DNA from: a bacterium
GTDB taxonomy: Bacteria; SAR324; XYD2-FULL-50-16
NCBI GenBank assembly: GCA_032250835.1
Contig: JAVVEA010000017.1
Location: 9,556-73,555, forward strand
Length of the DNA: 64,000 bases
Reading direction: 5' to 3'
Of the stretch, positions 9,414 to 58,989 are shown piece by piece. Position 1 is the stretch's first letter. The number at the start of each line of letters is the position of its first letter. The position numbers and the translations under genes were made by a program. The notes under the pieces were generated by a model, which was not told the DNA's origin, did no database searches, and worked only from the letters and a program-made list of their open reading frames with translations.

Positions 9414-10205
9414 CTAAAATCTACTGGGCGCACCGGCACCCGGGGGAATAAAAAAAATAGCATGCTTGCGCCGTAGGCGCATCAACTGATCGGACTGGTA
9501 TTGGTCGTTCAAGCGGTGCGCTGAATTGAGCGCAACGTAGATGTTTCCGCCGTAAAAGGCCAGACCAAAGCCGCCCAAAAGCGCACCCAACCCCGCTTGC
9601 CCGTCCTGATAGCTTTCACGGCTGGCCACCGCAAACAGGCCGGTCAACAAAAAGGCATAGGCCCCTTCGCGCCAACGGCCCAGGTAAAAGCTCCCTGAGC
9701 CGGGCAGCAGGGCCGAAAGGCTGCCTGCCAGAGCCGGTGAATAGGGGGCTTCTTGGTCTCGGTCGCGCCATTCACGGGCAAAATCTTGAACATAAACCGC
9801 CTTGGGTTCTTCTGGCGCGACGGCCTCAAAGGCCAAGACCGCTTCTTCGACCCTTTGGGCGCGCATCCCATAAGGCGCATTGGCTTGGCTGTCTAGCTTA
9901 GCTAGCCCAAAAAGGATCAGGTAATCTGCCAAAGGGCGATCTACCTTGAGCAAGGATTCTAAGTAAGTAGCTGCCTGTTCTGGCTGCCCCCCTGCTAAAT
10001 ATGCGCGGGCGGTCATCGCTTGCGCCCTTTGGGCTTCGGCGCTGGTCGGAAAGTGGAAACGGAGGCGTTCGAATTCGGTGATGGCGCGGAAGTATTCGCC
10101 TTGGCTATAGAGGTGCTGGCCAAAATCAAATAGTTGGCGGGGTCCTTCGGCTGCAACGAGCAACCAGGGCCAAAATAATAAAAAGAGCAACAGGGCGCTT
10201 CGCAA
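9414..10205 (-). CDS. Hypothetical exported or membrane protein (signal peptide, TPR-like helical N-half, Gly-rich hydrophobic C-half)
   Basis: It is a clean ORF with a signal peptide; no family is recognised. Confidence 0.45.
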   Translation of the reverse strand: MRSALLLFLLFWPWLLVAAEGPRQLFDFGQHLYSQGEYFRAITEFERLRFHFPTSAEAQRAQAMTARAYLAGGQPEQAATYLESLLKVDRPLADYLILFGLAKLDSQANAPYGMRAQRVEEAVLAFEAVAPEEPKAVYVQDFAREWRDRDQEAPYSPALAGSLSALLPGSGSFYLGRWREGAYAFLLTGLFAVASRESYQDGQAGLGALLGGFGLAFYGGNIYVALNSAHRLNDQYQSDQLMRLRRKHAIFFIPPGAGAPSRF

Positions 10206-10290
10206 GGAACCTCTTGTAGAGTCAAAATCCAGGCGAAAATTGCAACACGGCCCAGGCTCTTTGGCAAGGGGCAGGTAGGCTCAGGGCACA

Positions 10291-10335
10291 AAAAAAGGGA
10301 GAGTCCTCATCATTTGAGTCCTCTCCCTTGGAGCC
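10291..10335 (-). terminator. Rho-independent terminator on the minus strand after sORF G
   Basis: On the minus strand the hairpin AAGGGAGAG...CTCTCCCTT is followed by TTTTTTT. Confidence 0.6.
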
Positions 10336-10405: not shown

Positions 10406-10498
10406 TCAAGCAAAGAGGTTCAGTACGCCGAGGGCCATCAGGGCATAAAGGCCCCATTTGATGGCTTGGATCTTTTGGCTCGATACATAATTAGTCAT
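10406..10498 (-). CDS. sORF G: 30-aa single-TM peptide MTNYVSSQKIQAIKWGLYALMALGVLNLFA (KIQ family)
   Basis: A GGAG RBS lies 8 nt upstream of the ATG. The product has a polar N-terminus and an 18-aa hydrophobic C-terminus. It is a member of the repeated family described in the findings. Confidence 0.6.
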   Translation of the reverse strand: MTNYVSSQKIQAIKWGLYALMALGVLNLFA

Positions 10499-10526
10499 GG
10501 CTGATCTCCTGTTAAACAAGGTTTGG

Positions 10527-10607
10527 TTAAGCTACGTAAGCGACCATCAAGGTCGTGGCCAGAGCGACAAATGCTACGATGGCCTGGGGGATTTTTGCGG
10601 TATCCAT
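10527..10607 (-). CDS. sORF F: 26-aa peptide MDTAKIPQAIVAFVALATTLMVAYVA
   Basis: An AAGGAGA RBS precedes the ATG. The peptide is identical to sORF E, and the DNA differs from E at 3 synonymous sites only. Confidence 0.65.
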   Translation of the reverse strand: MDTAKIPQAIVAFVALATTLMVAYVA

Positions 10608-10643
10608 GTTGGTTCTCCTTAAAGGGTTTAAGTTCGGTGAATT

Positions 10644-10724
10644 TTAAGCTACGTAAGCGACCATCAAGGTCGTGGCCAGGGCGACAAAAGCTACAATGGC
10701 CTGGGGGATTTTTGCGGTATCCAT
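10644..10724 (-). CDS. sORF E: 26-aa peptide MDTAKIPQAIVAFVALATTLMVAYVA
   Basis: An AGGAGA RBS precedes the ATG. It is a paralogue of sORF F. Confidence 0.65.
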   Translation of the reverse strand: MDTAKIPQAIVAFVALATTLMVAYVA

Positions 10725-10792
10725 TTTGGTTCTCCTAGTTAAGTTTAAGTTTAAAGTGGCTTGATTGCCGGTGAGGTTTTTTTGCACCTCAT

Positions 10793-10820
10793 GGGTATAT
10801 CTATTTCACGTGTCGTGCCA
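10793..10820 (-). promoter_or_regulatory. Candidate sigma-54-type promoter (minus-strand TGGCACG-ACAC-GTGAAATAGATATACCC) about 70 nt upstream of sORF E
   Basis: The -24 TGGCACG element is perfect. The -12 position reads GTGA instead of TTGC. The 28-nt block is conserved with 12032..12059. Confidence 0.4.
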
Positions 10821-10882
10821 CGATTAATTAGTGCAATATTATCAACAAGATACAAAAACTCCCTTCCAACCAGAAGATTAAA

Positions 10883-10906
10883 TTCGGAACTAATAATTCC
10901 GACATG
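10883..10906. promoter_or_regulatory. Inverted repeat TCGGAA-N7-TTCCGA (candidate enhancer/UAS for the adjacent EBP)
   Basis: A perfect 6-bp palindrome sits about 80 bp upstream of the 10793..10820 promoter, and the half-site recurs four more times in the region. Confidence 0.4.
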
Positions 10907-10998
10907 AACATCTCTTCAGAATCCCCTGAGCCCAATAGGCACTGATTAACATTTTAAAAACTTTATTTTCAGTAAGTTGCAAAATTTAAAGAACTAGT

Positions 10999-11040
10999 AG
11001 TTCCGTAAATACAAAATCAGAACTTTTAGTTCGGAACGCC
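10999..11040. promoter_or_regulatory. GTTCCG ... GAAC-TTTTA-GTTC-GGAAC palindromic half-sites (second candidate UAS, about 200 bp upstream of the promoter)
   Basis: CGGAAC half-sites in inverted orientation lie in an AT-rich spacer. Confidence 0.35.
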
Positions 11041-11081
11041 CTAAAGCACTTACCATAAGCCCTCGGCACCCCATAAACAAA

Positions 11082-11118
11082 AAAATCCCGTGGAGGCACC
11101 CGAAGGCAACTTCACGGG
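11082..11118 (-). terminator. Rho-independent terminator on the minus strand after sORF D
   Basis: On the minus strand the hairpin CCCGTG...CACGGG is followed by TTTTTTT. Confidence 0.55.
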
Positions 11119-11256
11119 ATCTTTAAGGGGAGTCCATCATCCACATTAAATGCCCGGGGGGACAGACAACGGATTGATGAACTAATAATAAGAGGCCGCA
11201 CCGGGGAACGACCGGCTAGCCTCTTGGGGCCCGCAAAAGCCCCTCCCCAAAAAAGC

Positions 11257-11439
11257 TCAGTATTGCAGGTAACCGATCAACATAGCCCCTAGCAATGTTA
11301 GATAAAAAAACCAAAGAGGCCCATGGCCCCGCTTGCGCCTAAAGATGCGCCGTTGGCCCAATCCTGAAGACCGCTCGAAGGTTTGCGGTGCTTCTTTCAC
11401 TTCCGGTTGGCGCAGCAAGTTGGCCGATTGGATTTTCAT
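11257..11439 (-). CDS. sORF D: 60-aa family member with an Arg-rich insert (MKIQSANLLRQ...RRIFRRKRGHGP...LTLLGAMLIGYLQY)
   Basis: A GGAGAG RBS precedes the ATG. It shares the MKIQ N-terminus and the C-terminal hydrophobic helix with the shorter paralogues. Confidence 0.5.
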   Translation of the reverse strand: MKIQSANLLRQPEVKEAPQTFERSSGLGQRRIFRRKRGHGPLWFFYLTLLGAMLIGYLQY

Positions 11440-11678
11440 AATCTACTCTCCTTTGGGGTGGTTGACCGATGCCCCTCAAAAACATTCGGCTCGACAAGCG
11501 CCCGTAGACGCACAAATGGGGGCTCAAGCCCCCTTGGTTATGTTTCGCCCCCAAGACCTATGCAACACAGGCCAGCAGCCAAGCTCCCGATAGAGAGCCC
11601 AGGACTACCCAATCTATGGGGGTTCTGTTTGTTTTTAATCGATTCACACTAACTCCTTGTGTATGGGTTCGCCCGTCC

Positions 11679-11765
11679 TTAGGCGAAGTAAGCCAAGACG
11701 CCGATGCCGAACAAAGCGTTCAGGGCGACGAAGTATTGCATGATCTTTTCTGCTTGGATTTTCAT
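11679..11765 (-). CDS. sORF C: 28-aa peptide MKIQAEKIMQYFVALNALFGIGVLAYFA
   Basis: A CAGGAGA RBS precedes the ATG. It is identical in protein to sORF B, and the DNA differs at 2 synonymous sites. Confidence 0.65.
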   Translation of the reverse strand: MKIQAEKIMQYFVALNALFGIGVLAYFA

Positions 11766-11796
11766 GTCGGTCTCCTGTTTAGGTCTAAGTTAAGTT

Positions 11797-11883
11797 TTAG
11801 GCGAAGTAAGCCAAAACGCCGATGCCGAACAAAGCGTTCAGAGCGACGAAGTATTGCATGATCTTTTCTGCTTGGATTTTCAT
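11797..11883 (-). CDS. sORF B: 28-aa peptide MKIQAEKIMQYFVALNALFGIGVLAYFA
   Basis: A GGAG RBS lies 7 nt upstream of the ATG. It is a paralogue of sORF C. Confidence 0.65.
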   Translation of the reverse strand: MKIQAEKIMQYFVALNALFGIGVLAYFA

Positions 11884-11908
11884 GTCGGACTCCAGAGGAA
11901 GTTTGTGT

Positions 11909-11995
11909 TTATGAGAACAGGGTCAATACCCCGAGACCTAAGAGTACGTTCAAGACGATCAGGTACTGGGGGAGTTTTTTAAATTCGATCTTCAT
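11909..11995 (-). CDS. sORF A: 28-aa peptide MKIEFKKLPQYLIVLNVLLGLGVLTLFS
   Basis: It has the same architecture as the other family members and is the first gene of the A-B-C cluster, but its RBS (AAGAG) is weak. Confidence 0.5.
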   Translation of the reverse strand: MKIEFKKLPQYLIVLNVLLGLGVLTLFS

Positions 11996-12031: not shown

Positions 12032-12059
12032 GGTTCTATCTGTTTCACAAGCTGTGCCA
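12032..12059 (-). promoter_or_regulatory. Candidate sigma-54-type promoter (minus-strand TGGCACA-GCTT-GTGAAACAGATAGAACC) about 40 nt upstream of sORF A
   Basis: It matches the 10793..10820 motif at 20 of 28 positions, with a perfect TGGCAC -24 element and a non-canonical -12. Confidence 0.4.
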
Positions 12060-12127
12060 AGCAGTTTATATAACTGTTTTTATTTGATATAATAAATTTG
12101 CTACCCAGAACACAGGGCTATAATCAG

Positions 12128-12152
12128 AATTTTTGATTCCGAAAAATAATGA
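12128..12152. promoter_or_regulatory. TTCCGAA-AAATAAT half-site (candidate UAS, about 80 bp upstream of the promoter)
   Basis: It has the same TTCCGAA/TAATAA elements as 10883..10906. Confidence 0.3.
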
Positions 12153-12224
12153 AATCCCCGGCGCGCCCCGAAAGAGACGCCTGGATTAATCAAAATAATT
12201 TAATATATTCAGGTAGTTGTAAGT

Positions 12225-12265
12225 TTTACGGAACTGAAAGGTCCGTTTAAGGCTGGTCGGAACTG
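12225..12265. promoter_or_regulatory. ACGGAAC-N6-GTCCGT imperfect palindrome plus a TCGGAAC half-site (candidate UAS, about 190 bp upstream of the promoter)
   Basis: CGGAAC-type half-sites recur here, and the spacing relative to the promoter mirrors the E-F-G locus. Confidence 0.35.
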
Positions 12266-13702
12266 TTAATTCTCATCGTACTCAGATGAGTACTTAAACT
12301 CCTCTTTTTTAATATGATATTTAGTGAGGAGTTTGTGTAGTTGGCGGGTGGTGATCCCGGCGGTGGCGGCTGAATCGTTGATCTTGCCCTTGTGTCGAGT
12401 CAACAACTGGATCAGGTAGGCCTGCTCCACCTGTTCCACCGCCAGCTGGCGTACCTCAGCCAAAGGCGAGTTAGCGTCCACCACCAGCCCGCCGCGCCCT
12501 TTGTCTTGGGCCAAGAAATCGCCGGGGAGGCTGCTAGGCAGCAGGCAGTTGGTTTTCTCTAAGATATAAGCACGCTCTAAGATATTCTCTAATTCCCGGA
12601 TGTTGCCGGGGAAGCTGTACTTTTGTAGGGCCTTGAAGCTATCGGGGTGGATACTAGTGATCCGGCGGCCATATTCGCCTTCTAGATATTTTAAGAAGTT
12701 GTTGGCCAACAGCGGGATGTCTTCGGCCCGTTCGCGTAAGGGGGGAACGGTGATCGGGAAGACGTTGAGGCGGTAATAGAGGTCTTCGCGGAATTCGCCG
12801 GATTTGGAGCGTTCTAAAAGGTCTTCGTTGGTGGCGGCAATCACCCGCACGTCGGTGTCGAGCATACTTTCACCGCCGACGCGCTGCATCACATGGTCTT
12901 GCAAAACCTGCAACAGCTTGGTCTGGGCGGCGGGGCTGATGGTGCCGATCTCGTCTAAGAAGATAGTCCCGCCTTTGGCGATCTCAAAACGACCCAATTT
13001 GCGCTTTACCGCGCCGGTAAAGGAGCCCTTCTCATGCCCGAATAACTCGGATTCGATTAAGTTGTCGGGGATCGCCCCGCAGTGGACGTGCACGAAGGGC
13101 CCGCCGCGCCGCGCCGAGTTGCGGTGGATCAAACGCGCCAAGACCCCCTTACCCACGCCGGTTTCGCCTAAGAGCAACACCGAAGAGTCCGTCGGGGCCA
13201 CCGAATGGGCCTGTTCGAACATGCTGATCATCACCTGCGAGTTGGTCTTGGTGACCCCCTGCTTGTCGTCATCCCAGACCGACATGCGCAGCATCTCTAA
13301 CTCAGACTGCACCTGGGTGTTGGTCTCTAAGTCTTCGAGAGTGTGCAGCAGGGCCTGCGGGTCGATGGGCATAACCAAATAATGGTTGGCCCCGGACTTG
13401 ACCGCTTGGATCAGGTTGCGGATCTGGTCTTGGGTACTGATCACCACCAGCGAGGCGGTCAGGTAGATTTCGCGGAATTTTTCAAAAACTTTCTGGAACG
13501 CCGCTGTAGAGGTGGTGGCGGCGAATCCGTCTTCCACCAAATAGACCAAGTCGATGAACGTGACCTCATAGCGGTGTTTTTTGAACCGATCGAGGCACTC
13601 ATCTAAGCTCAGCACCGAATCGATCCGGTAGCGGTCGCCGATGGTGAAGGTGATGGCGTCGATGGCGTCTTTCGACGGTGTTAAAGTCAGTACAGAACGC
13701 AT
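12266..13702 (-). CDS. Sigma-54-dependent transcriptional activator (bEBP, NtrC/Fis family) with a degenerate receiver-like N-domain
   Basis: It has an AAA+ sigma-54 interaction domain (GETGVGKG Walker A, GSFTGA = GAFTGA motif) and a C-terminal Fis-type HTH. The N-domain lacks the canonical acidic pocket. Confidence 0.85.
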   Translation of the reverse strand: MRSVLTLTPSKDAIDAITFTIGDRYRIDSVLSLDECLDRFKKHRYEVTFIDLVYLVEDGFAATTSTAAFQKVFEKFREIYLTASLVVISTQDQIRNLIQAVKSGANHYLVMPIDPQALLHTLEDLETNTQVQSELEMLRMSVWDDDKQGVTKTNSQVMISMFEQAHSVAPTDSSVLLLGETGVGKGVLARLIHRNSARRGGPFVHVHCGAIPDNLIESELFGHEKGSFTGAVKRKLGRFEIAKGGTIFLDEIGTISPAAQTKLLQVLQDHVMQRVGGESMLDTDVRVIAATNEDLLERSKSGEFREDLYYRLNVFPITVPPLRERAEDIPLLANNFLKYLEGEYGRRITSIHPDSFKALQKYSFPGNIRELENILERAYILEKTNCLLPSSLPGDFLAQDKGRGGLVVDANSPLAEVRQLAVEQVEQAYLIQLLTRHKGKINDSAATAGITTRQLHKLLTKYHIKKEEFKYSSEYDEN

Positions 13703-29381: not shown

Positions 29382-29468
29382 GCCCAGGTGGCGGAATAGG
29401 TAGACGCCCGGGACTTAAAATCCCGTGCCCGCAAGGGCGTGCCGGTTCGATTCCGGCCCTGGGTACCA
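29382..29468 (+). tRNA. tRNA-Leu (anticodon UAA)
   Basis: The acceptor stem is GCCCAGG/CCTGGGT. The anticodon arm is CGGGA-CUUAAAA-UCCCG. It has a long variable arm, the T-arm GCCGG-TTCGATT-CCGGC, and a CCA end. Confidence 0.85.
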
Positions 29469-58647: not shown

Positions 58648-58675
58648 TGGCACGGCTCTTGAAATACTAAGAGCA
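58648..58675 (+). promoter_or_regulatory. Candidate sigma-54-type promoter TGGCACG-GCTC-TTGAAAT
   Basis: The -24 element is perfect and the -12 reads TTGA. It lies about 80 nt upstream of the 58741 ORF and is preceded by phased A-tracts. Confidence 0.4.
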
Positions 58676-58740: not shown

Positions 58741-58989
58741 ATGATCGAAAAAACCTTGAAGAAAATCTCAGCTCAATTGGAACTGTTTGCAAAAAACGGC
58801 ATCAGCATCCTGCGCGCCCTGGACATTTTGGAAGCCTCTACCCAAGACGTAGAAGAAATCATCTGTTTGAATACGCTGCGCGAATCTCTGGTTGAAGTAG
58901 CCAGCAGCGACAAGAAGAAAACCAGCAAGAGCTTGGTCAACTTTGCAAAACCCCGGCACGAAGGGCTGCAAGCAGTTGGTATGGCTTAA
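58741..58989 (+). CDS. Hypothetical protein (82 aa)
   Basis: A GGAGAAAG RBS precedes the ATG. Confidence 0.4.
   Translation: MIEKTLKKISAQLELFAKNGISILRALDILEASTQDVEEIICLNTLRESLVEVASSDKKKTSKSLVNFAKPRHEGLQAVGMA

Follow-up and report, generated by a model that had tools for sequence, protein, structure and literature searches.

A tandem array of genes for small hydrophobic peptides beside a sigma-54 activator in a SAR324 genome

A 1.6-kb stretch of contig JAVVEA010000017.1 (assembly GCA_032250835.1), from a bacterium of the lineage SAR324, carries a run of very short minus-strand open reading frames next to a gene for a sigma-54 activator, which raises the question of whether these small open reading frames (sORFs) are genes at all and, if they are, what switches them on and what their products do. 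The window referred to throughout is the whole 64-kb stretch that was analysed (positions 9,556 to 73,555 of the contig); coordinates are those of the window, and statements that an element is found only in the window apply to those 64 kb. As set out below, codon-level comparison, promoter and enhancer architecture, and the recurrence of the arrangement in distant relatives make it highly probable that the sORFs are real micro-peptide genes controlled by the adjacent activator, a bacterial enhancer-binding protein (bEBP), through sigma-54.

The small open reading frames and their peptides

Seven minus-strand sORFs, A to G, had been proposed from a reading of the sequence alone, and all seven were recovered: A (11909-11995, 28 aa, MKIEFKKLPQYLIVLNVLLGLGVLTLFS), B (11797-11883, 28 aa, MKIQAEKIMQYFVALNALFGIGVLAYFA) and C (11679-11765, 28 aa, the same peptide as B), then D (11257-11439, 60 aa, with an MKIQ start, a basic linker and a C-terminal hydrophobic helix), E (10644-10724, 26 aa, MDTAKIPQAIVAFVALATTLMVAYVA), F (10527-10607, 26 aa, the same peptide as E) and G (10406-10498, 30 aa, MTNYVSSQKIQAIKWGLYALMALGVLNLFA). 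The count was nevertheless one short, as a filter for starts preceded by a Shine-Dalgarno (SD) sequence, products of 18-70 aa and hydrophobicity over the 16 C-terminal residues exposed an overlooked eighth gene, H (11558-11647, minus strand), with a GTG start, the SD AAGGAG and a 29-aa product (MNRLKTNRTPIDWVVLGSLSGAWLLACVA). Across the 64-kb window this filter passed seven open reading frames, six of them inside the 1.6-kb stretch, a clustering far beyond chance. The well-placed SD attributed to all seven original genes was found ahead of B, C, D, E, F and G (GGAG or AGGAG, 6-9 nt before the ATG), but A has only a weak AAGAG, and the shared motif K-I-Q...GLGVL...F-A/S that had been described fits A, B and C and partly G, but not E/F, H or D.

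The differences between tandem copies are those expected of translated sequence. The two nucleotide differences between B and C are synonymous, as are the three between E and F within the coding sequence; across tandem copies in the window and four loci from relatives (L007, L009, L014 and L015), variable codons comprised 16 synonymous against 3 non-synonymous cases. The same E/F differences change residues (E/G, M/K and R/Q) in the plus-strand open reading frame 10523-10738, so that the plus-strand frames are antisense artefacts, as the sequence-only reading had held. Comparison with a relative whose bEBP is 85 % identical, represented by Logan contigs L004 and L021 (run SRR25428892) and L005 (SRR25385360), identified orthologues of A (L005 2106-2192), H (L021 320-409), D (L021 528-710), E (L021 1249-1329) and G (L021 1370-1462), all with unchanged lengths of 28, 29, 60, 26 and 30 aa, respectively. 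Pooled over these five pairs, the ratio of non-synonymous to synonymous differences per site (pN/pS) was 0.44 in the peptide frame versus 0.86 and 1.31 in the shifted frames, with synonymous sites close to saturation (pS 0.65). Individually, A and its orthologue share 17 of 28 residues (pN/pS 0.33) and D and its orthologue 41 of 60 (pN/pS 0.36), and H and G matched their orthologues with phmmer E-values of 4e-6 and 9e-7 among the 7,666 sORFs from all fetched loci that were used for phmmer and profile searches. The coding sequences of the window and the relative are alignable, but most of the intergenic sequence between them is not, and orthologue divergence is fast and restricted to hydrophobic-for-hydrophobic swaps. 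The peptide frame, for which the earlier reading had looked to homologues, is thus kept in length and, judged by pN/pS, is under codon-level purifying selection.

These observations bear directly on the possibility that the locus is a non-coding repeat, or that the plus-strand frames are the real genes. Automatic annotation does call antisense or N-terminally extended frames on arrays in relatives (L014 and L007), which counts in favour of such a reading. Against it, only the minus-strand frame shows the synonymous bias, orthologues keep the start, the stop and the length but not the intergenic sequence, an SD precedes every gene (weakly in A), and copy differences are non-synonymous in the plus-strand frames. 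This reading is effectively refuted.

The predicted peptides share an architecture. N-termini are short and mostly begin MK, net charge is 0 to +2 (+7 in D), and an uncharged C-terminal stretch of 15-24 residues follows, with a mean Eisenberg hydrophobicity of 0.5-0.8. Helical hydrophobic moments of 0.03-0.22, against 0.42-0.66 for PSM-alpha3, delta-toxin and TisB, indicate the profile of a uniformly hydrophobic transmembrane helix rather than an amphipathic one. AlphaFold2 predicted a single helix over residues 3-29 of G (pLDDT 85), and hydropathy together with this model fits the class of small single-pass proteins (<50 aa, one helix, short termini), D at 60 aa being longer; the polar N-terminus and single C-terminal hydrophobic helix first described from sequence are therefore borne out by hydropathy, and for G by structure prediction. 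An Asn lies mid-helix in A, B/C, G and the L009 peptides, and G-x-G or GxxxG motifs occur in A, B/C, H and the H orthologue; both kinds of feature may favour helix-helix association in membranes.

The common architecture is not matched by demonstrable common descent. Pairwise and profile searches connected A with B (E 2e-6) and matched every type with its own orthologue, and the one independent cross-lineage link was between E and a 28-mer from L014 (E 0.0065 among the 7,666 sORFs). Apart from that link, profile hidden Markov models recovered only the types on which they had been trained; the searches accordingly do not establish a single homologous peptide family, and the peptides comprise at least five sequence types joined by context and architecture rather than by demonstrated homology. 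Searches of nine peptides against Pfam and NCBIfam at E<=10 returned only sub-threshold noise (Tom6, YvrJ and PIPSyn), in agreement with the original statement that no family could be named. A 112-aa concatenation of A, B, G and E had no match at E<=10 among 5.8 billion proteins, and D, searched against 1.84 billion cluster representatives, retrieved itself and one spurious low-complexity match to a 1,092-aa protein.

The activator and its two target promoters

Directly upstream of the array, as the sequence-only reading had recognised, lies a gene for a 478-aa bEBP (12266-13702, minus strand) with a degenerate receiver, an AAA+ sigma-54 interaction domain and a C-terminal Fis-type helix-turn-helix (HTH) domain. 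Pfam matches are to Sigma54_activat (PF00158, 2.9e-66), AAA_lid_14 and HTH_8, and the translation contains a GSFTGA loop of the GAFTGA type. The Response_reg score of 25.3 falls under the Pfam cut-off of 30.2, and relative to an NtrC reference the receiver is without the acidic pair and the conserved Lys, and the receiver Asp is replaced by Glu in one branch of related bEBPs (P0002-P0004). Conventional phosphorylation of this receiver is therefore unlikely, and with the phosphorylation pocket lost the input to the bEBP is probably a ligand or partner protein instead of a kinase. Scans of genome contigs and metagenome contigs for further bEBPs found only relatives at 26-44 % identity, none with arrays.

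Two near-identical control regions, each containing GTGGCAC-N5-GTGAAAyAGATA, precede the sORFs. The predicted sigma-54-type promoter P1 (12037-12059, minus strand, TGGCAC-AGCTT-GTGAAACAGATA) has its TGGCAC-N5-GTGA element at 12045-12059 ahead of A and is conserved in L004 and L005, and P2 (10798-10820, minus strand, TGGCAC-GACAC-GTGAAATAGATA) has the corresponding element at 10806-10820 ahead of E. TGGCAC-N5 is a perfect -24 element with perfect spacing, but the -12 element is GTGA or TTGA, not TTGC, and no canonical TGGYRY-N5-TTGCW promoter was found in the window. As seven related arrays, and other genes of the lineage that lie next to a bEBP, have the same variant -12, the kTGAAA element looks like a lineage variant. 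Other sigma-54-like promoters in SAR324-related loci are mostly TGGCAy-N5-TTGA(A/G), at L012 5529 (plus strand) and 2688 (minus strand), L008 6757 (plus strand) and L016 5671 (plus strand), with one canonical TTGC promoter seen in L016; the TTGA-type -12 may be a lineage-specific preference. If so, the conserved kTGAAAT element could aid the prediction of sigma-54 promoters in SAR324-related lineages.

Upstream of each promoter lie three 15-bp palindromes of the form GGAAyT-N3-AgTTCy, which within the window are confined to the sORF locus and provide a candidate binding sequence for the HTH domain of the bEBP (GGAACTAAAAGTTCC). At P1 these putative enhancers are on the minus strand at 12259-12273 (GAATTAACAGTTCC, about -213, counting as throughout from the promoter TGGCAC, and overlapping the bEBP stop codon), 12230-12244 (GGACCTTTCAGTTCC, about -185) and 12126-12140 (GGAATCAAAAATTCT, about -80), and at P2, on the same strand, at 11019-11033 (CGAACTAAAAGTTCT, about -212), 10990-11004 (GGAACTACTAGTTCT, about -183) and 10886-10900 (GGAATTATTAGTTCC, about -79). 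The P1 and P2 control regions can be aligned to one another and to their L004 orthologue, and three palindromes stand at about -213/-184/-80 in all three. A version of the palindrome with a 4-nt spacer gave no matches, the correct spacer being 3 nt. A hairpin at 12156-12173 (minus strand), probably the terminator of the bEBP gene, sits between palindromes 2 and 3 of P1. Within the 64 kb, the peptide operons are the sole visible enhancer targets.

Strong predicted intrinsic terminators are located, on the minus strand, only after D (11079-11118, -22 kcal/mol, z-score -4.4, a run of seven U) and after G (10290-10329, -24 kcal/mol, z-score -4.0, a run of seven U, its position kept in L021), and the hairpin past H (11518-11533, minus strand, z-score -2.0) is weak, has no or a poor U-tract and is probably leaky. 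No promoter is evident ahead of D. The transcription units are therefore most likely two, P1 to A-B-C-H-D and P2 to E-F-G. The earlier division into A-B-C, D and E-F-G, each ended by a hairpin, is retained for E-F-G and for the strong ends after D and G, but the hairpin in the C/H region is weak and D joins the P1 unit.

Elsewhere in the window, at 58648-58662 (plus strand), a further sigma-54-type promoter shares the unusual -12 (TGGCACGGCTCTTGAAATAC) and is followed by an open reading frame for an 82-aa soluble product (58741-58989, plus strand) and a terminator. There are no GGAA-N7-TTCC palindromes at this promoter, which therefore presumably responds to a different activator. Downstream of the array, a TPR/YfiO-like protein (9414-10205, minus strand) is 100 % identical to an NCBI protein named BamD from a metagenome-assembled genome (MAG); for a BamD, its hydrophobic and Gly-rich C-terminal part is unusual.

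Recurrence of the arrangement in related lineages

Homologues of the window bEBP at 53-57 % identity were found in SAR324-cluster and related MAGs, and those examined also stand beside short hydrophobic sORFs. Locus L006 (bEBP 57 %) has one 21-aa and one 35-aa sORF; L007 (56 %) has three 21-aa copies (MKVIHSVIAVYAIVALTLLTL) and one of 31 aa; L009 and L010 (55 %) have six and four copies, respectively, of 23-28 aa (MKFDLANLAQPIVAFV...), divergent from the bEBP; and L014 (53 %) has eleven identical 23-aa copies and a 28-aa variant. A neighbour-joining tree built from the 40 best bEBP homologues places all the peptide-linked bEBPs in one clade (the window protein with P0001, P0002-P0004, and P0008 with P0014). 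Each sampled bEBP of this clade adjoins an array of 21-35-aa hydrophobic sORFs, with 2-12 genes where the contig spans the array, and there were no such arrays at any of the four sampled sister-clade loci (L008, L011, L012/13 and L016/17). The co-occurrence of the peptides with a bEBP that had been put forward for checking is thus seen in every sampled member of the peptide-linked clade.

The regulatory layout recurs along with the genes. The element GTGGCAC-N5-kTGAAAT precedes every array in L006, L007, L009/L010 and L014, and three palindromes recur with half-sites different from those of the window, L009 and L014 having them at -221/-192/-90 and L007 at -217/-187/-80; L006 shows a clear one at -80. 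All sampled arrays of the clade have a palindrome near -80, and six of the seven promoter regions contain the full set of three. Lineages otherwise have unrelated genes on either side of the array, and the seven array neighbourhoods have only the bEBP in common; an AstE/AspA-like gene adjoins the array in the window and L004 only. Because array, promoter and palindromes are kept while the flanking genes differ, the conserved unit is the bEBP with its enhancers, sigma-54 promoter and micro-peptide array. Sequenced samples with such arrays include JGI 3300032277 and 3300032373 and SRR25428892.

Copy number differs beside identical bEBPs, with six copies in L009 (4044-4654) versus four in L010 (4258-4654), and twelve in L014 (2558-3640) versus at least three in L015 (51-322, at a contig end). 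Peptide arrays evidently grow and shrink fast. In L021, a B-type copy at 96-176 has ACG in the position of the ATG (aggagaatccACGAAGATCCAAGCAGAAAAG), which may reflect decay, a non-canonical start or a 20-aa product from an internal ATG. Public gene calls on the arrays comprise two 37-aa antisense frames in L014 (3406-3519 and 3506-3619, both plus strand) and a 45-aa N-terminally extended frame in L007 (7746-7883, plus strand), and the true 23-aa and 21-aa genes are uncalled. The array is thus a conserved module that standard annotation has overlooked, with gene callers that touch the arrays annotating the antisense strand. In the sister clade, pseudo-receiver bEBPs are each followed by a sigma-54-like promoter and an uncharacterised open reading frame of 90-129 aa (L012 5615-5995, L016 5759-6148 and L008 6828-7100), and a bEBP paired with a single small target of its own may be a recurring pattern in the group.

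Possible roles of the peptides and comparison with known systems

Codon-level selection, two promoters with three palindromes each and linkage to the bEBP clade in distant relatives support the original suggestion of a regulated membrane-peptide system, here under the adjacent sigma-54 activator. On sequence grounds, the genes, their coding constraint, the predicted promoters, enhancers and terminators, and the linkage of bEBP and peptides across lineages are the demonstrated part of this system; membrane insertion, oligomerisation and physiological effect are steps that we infer. In the mechanism that we propose, a signal, either a ligand or a partner protein, would activate the pseudo-receiver bEBP, which would bind the three palindromic enhancers 5' of each sigma-54 promoter and fire the two units A-B-C-H-D and E-F-G. 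Each gene, from its own ribosome-binding site, would yield a leaderless peptide of 26-60 residues with a short Lys-bearing N-terminus and then an uncharged hydrophobic helix of 16-23 residues running to the C-terminus. The peptides would insert N-in/C-out in the cytoplasmic membrane of the producer, where the helices could self-associate through the mid-helix Asn and the G-x-G or GxxxG motifs and alter membrane potential, permeability or fluidity, as a gated, dose-driven response of the YohP or Ibs kind. Tandem amplification would give dosage, and sigma-54 control a silent off-state.

We estimate the probability of such a cis-acting membrane-effector mechanism at roughly 0.45. Multi-gene transcripts, individual SDs and up to 12 copies imply high output, and sigma-54 promoters have near-zero basal activity, as would suit products whose leaky expression is harmful or costly. 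Several observations weigh against it. Twelve tandem copies are odd for a self-directed depolariser, of which little peptide should suffice, and no conserved neighbour gene gives a functional hint in the array neighbourhoods compared. The hydrophobic stretch is short and broken by Pro, Gln or Asn in some relatives (the L009/L014 type), and in the L014 peptide MKFDLANLAQPIVAFVAIAMFSI the Pro is followed by just 12 residues, few for a helix that has to span a bilayer. Profiles run over the 7,666 sORFs found no link among the A/B, E/F, G, H, D and L006/L007 types, and in view of this lack of demonstrable homology the types may differ in role. In L021, the segment 5' of the E orthologue (711-1248, corresponding to 10725-11256 in the window) has no recognisable sigma-54 promoter or palindromes, so the second unit there is under other regulation or is reached by read-through, and control of E and G is not invariant. 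That segment does contain TGGCAA...TGTGAAC, with a spacing 4 nt too long, and E is single-copy in L021. A weaker alternative is a new mode of programmed membrane remodelling or dormancy, in which the silent sigma-54 switch would flood the membrane with oligomerising helices.

Other functions were weighed against the same evidence. A role as accessory or regulatory subunits, comparable to KdpF, CydX, AcrZ, MgrB or sarcolipin-like regulators and binding a specific membrane protein whose gene lies elsewhere, would suit the single-pass architecture and size of the peptides, and the exact lengths that types A/B, H, D, E and G keep between species could mean distinct partners. This is nonetheless unlikely, as flanking genes are wholly different between lineages, stoichiometric subunits do not normally occur in 4-12 identical copies or vary in number among near-identical strains, and the fast divergence involves only hydrophobic-for-hydrophobic swaps. 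Secretion as leaderless membrane-active peptides resembling phenol-soluble modulins (PSMs) or multi-peptide bacteriocins, with a role as surfactant, biofilm matrix or antimicrobial, would account for tandem leaderless sORFs with their own SDs under a response-regulator-like activator, and for a high and variable copy number (six in L009, four in L010 and twelve in L014) that suggests selection for yield. The low hydrophobic moments (0.03-0.22 versus 0.42-0.66 for PSM-alpha3 and delta-toxin), the absence of any conserved ABC exporter or immunity gene near the arrays in seven neighbourhoods and the lack of a match to Pfam bacteriocin or PSM models argue against a bacteriocin-like role, and peptides of net charge 0 to +2 with an uncharged hydrophobic part would be insoluble; we consider secretion quite unlikely. 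Precursors of ribosomally synthesised and post-translationally modified peptides were rejected, as arrays have no conserved enzyme gene and the peptides no leader/core organisation, as were pilin or Flp-like proteins; a role in attenuation or as leader peptides was likewise set aside, there being no structural gene downstream and a strong terminator after both units.

A different role would be that of signals, exported, trimmed and then sensed by the bEBP pseudo-receiver as receptor, in a Gram-negative sigma-54 counterpart of the Rgg/short hydrophobic peptide (SHP) circuits. As in those circuits, unannotated frames of 21-30 aa with a Lys-bearing N-terminus and a hydrophobic C-terminus lie beside or divergent from a regulator; the unphosphorylatable receiver needs another input, peptide and regulator diverge in parallel between lineages, the two are adjacent in all seven loci, and palindromes in the sORF promoters point to control by that regulator. 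The regulator is, however, no RRNPP/TPR protein, the arrays have no linked exporter, Eep/RseP-like protease or Opp importer, export would require such strongly hydrophobic peptides to pass the outer membrane, SHP genes are single-copy against up to 12 copies in the arrays, the peptides are without the conserved SHP acidic residue, and with the peptide operons as the only enhancer targets in the 64 kb the loop would have no visible output. Signalling of this kind is likewise quite unlikely; were it true, SAR324-related bacteria would provide the first sigma-54-wired peptide-autoinducer circuit of a Gram-negative lineage, and tandem amplification would tune the amount of signal. A type I toxin-antitoxin system with an antisense RNA antitoxin (Ibs/Ldr/TisB/Hok) is suggested by very small hydrophobic peptides at repeated loci, whose uniform helices resemble Ibs, but it is very improbable, because the genes form polycistronic units with gaps of about 30 nt, are served by an activator-dependent sigma-54 promoter, and have nothing but the SD in those 30-nt spacers. 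There is no antisense sigma-70-like promoter in the arrays (three promoter-like matches in 2.3 kb equal the shuffled expectation) and no Rfam small RNA in the window, in which a tRNA gene (29382-29465, plus strand) was the sole Rfam match; none of nine peptides matched an Ibs, Ldr, TisB, Hok or ShoB model of Pfam or NCBIfam at E<=10.

Whichever role applies, the functions of small membrane proteins are mostly unknown, and one activator with one enhancer layout, one promoter type and a micro-peptide output offers a clean experimental handle that is rare for this class. If the peptides prove to be membrane silencers, signals or surfactants, they would represent a new physiological switch in the experimentally little-studied SAR324-related bacteria. 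Literature searches on sigma-54/RpoN together with small hydrophobic peptides, tandem sORFs or SAR324 found no description of such a module.

Among known systems, the 27-aa YohP of E. coli reduces both the potential and the fluidity of the membrane and brings about metabolic silencing (PMC12719787). The likeness lies in size, a leaderless hydrophobic helix, an N-terminal Lys, no enzymatic potential and an induction-dependent action in the cell's own membrane; in contrast, YohP shows no sequence similarity to the peptides described here and comes from one gene that has no activator of its own, whereas the array is tandemly amplified, its eight genes represent at least five types, and it has its own sigma-54/bEBP switch. 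Ibs, Ldr and TisB are likewise very short, largely uncharged hydrophobic peptides from repeated loci that annotation often misses, but the arrays differ in being polycistronic with SDs and a sigma-54 promoter, and in having no antisense signature and no model match. The SHP genes of streptococci are unannotated short frames with a charged N-terminus and a hydrophobic C-terminus, beside or divergent from the regulator that controls them (PMC3150281). The arrays differ from Rgg/SHP in their AAA+ sigma-54 activator, Gram-negative setting and multiple copies, with no linked export, processing or import and no acidic residue. Tandem homologous leaderless sORFs, each with its own ribosome-binding site, occur in the staphylococcal psm-alpha operon and in the multi-peptide leaderless bacteriocins aureocin A70 and garvicin KS as they do in the arrays, and the PSM operon is under direct response-regulator control and was long unannotated; however, PSMs and leaderless bacteriocins are amphipathic, cationic and exported by dedicated ABC transporters, whereas the array peptides are uniformly hydrophobic and have no linked transporter. 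With classical bEBP regulons such as those of NtrC and PspF, the locus shares the TGGCAC -24 element, upstream palindromic enhancers, an AAA+ domain with a GAFTGA-type loop and a C-terminal HTH domain, and it differs in its kTGAAA -12 element in place of TTGC, its degenerate receiver and its exclusively micro-peptide targets. Small hydrophobic membrane peptides are thus known as a kind, and it is their dedicated sigma-54/bEBP control combined with tandem amplification that is unprecedented.

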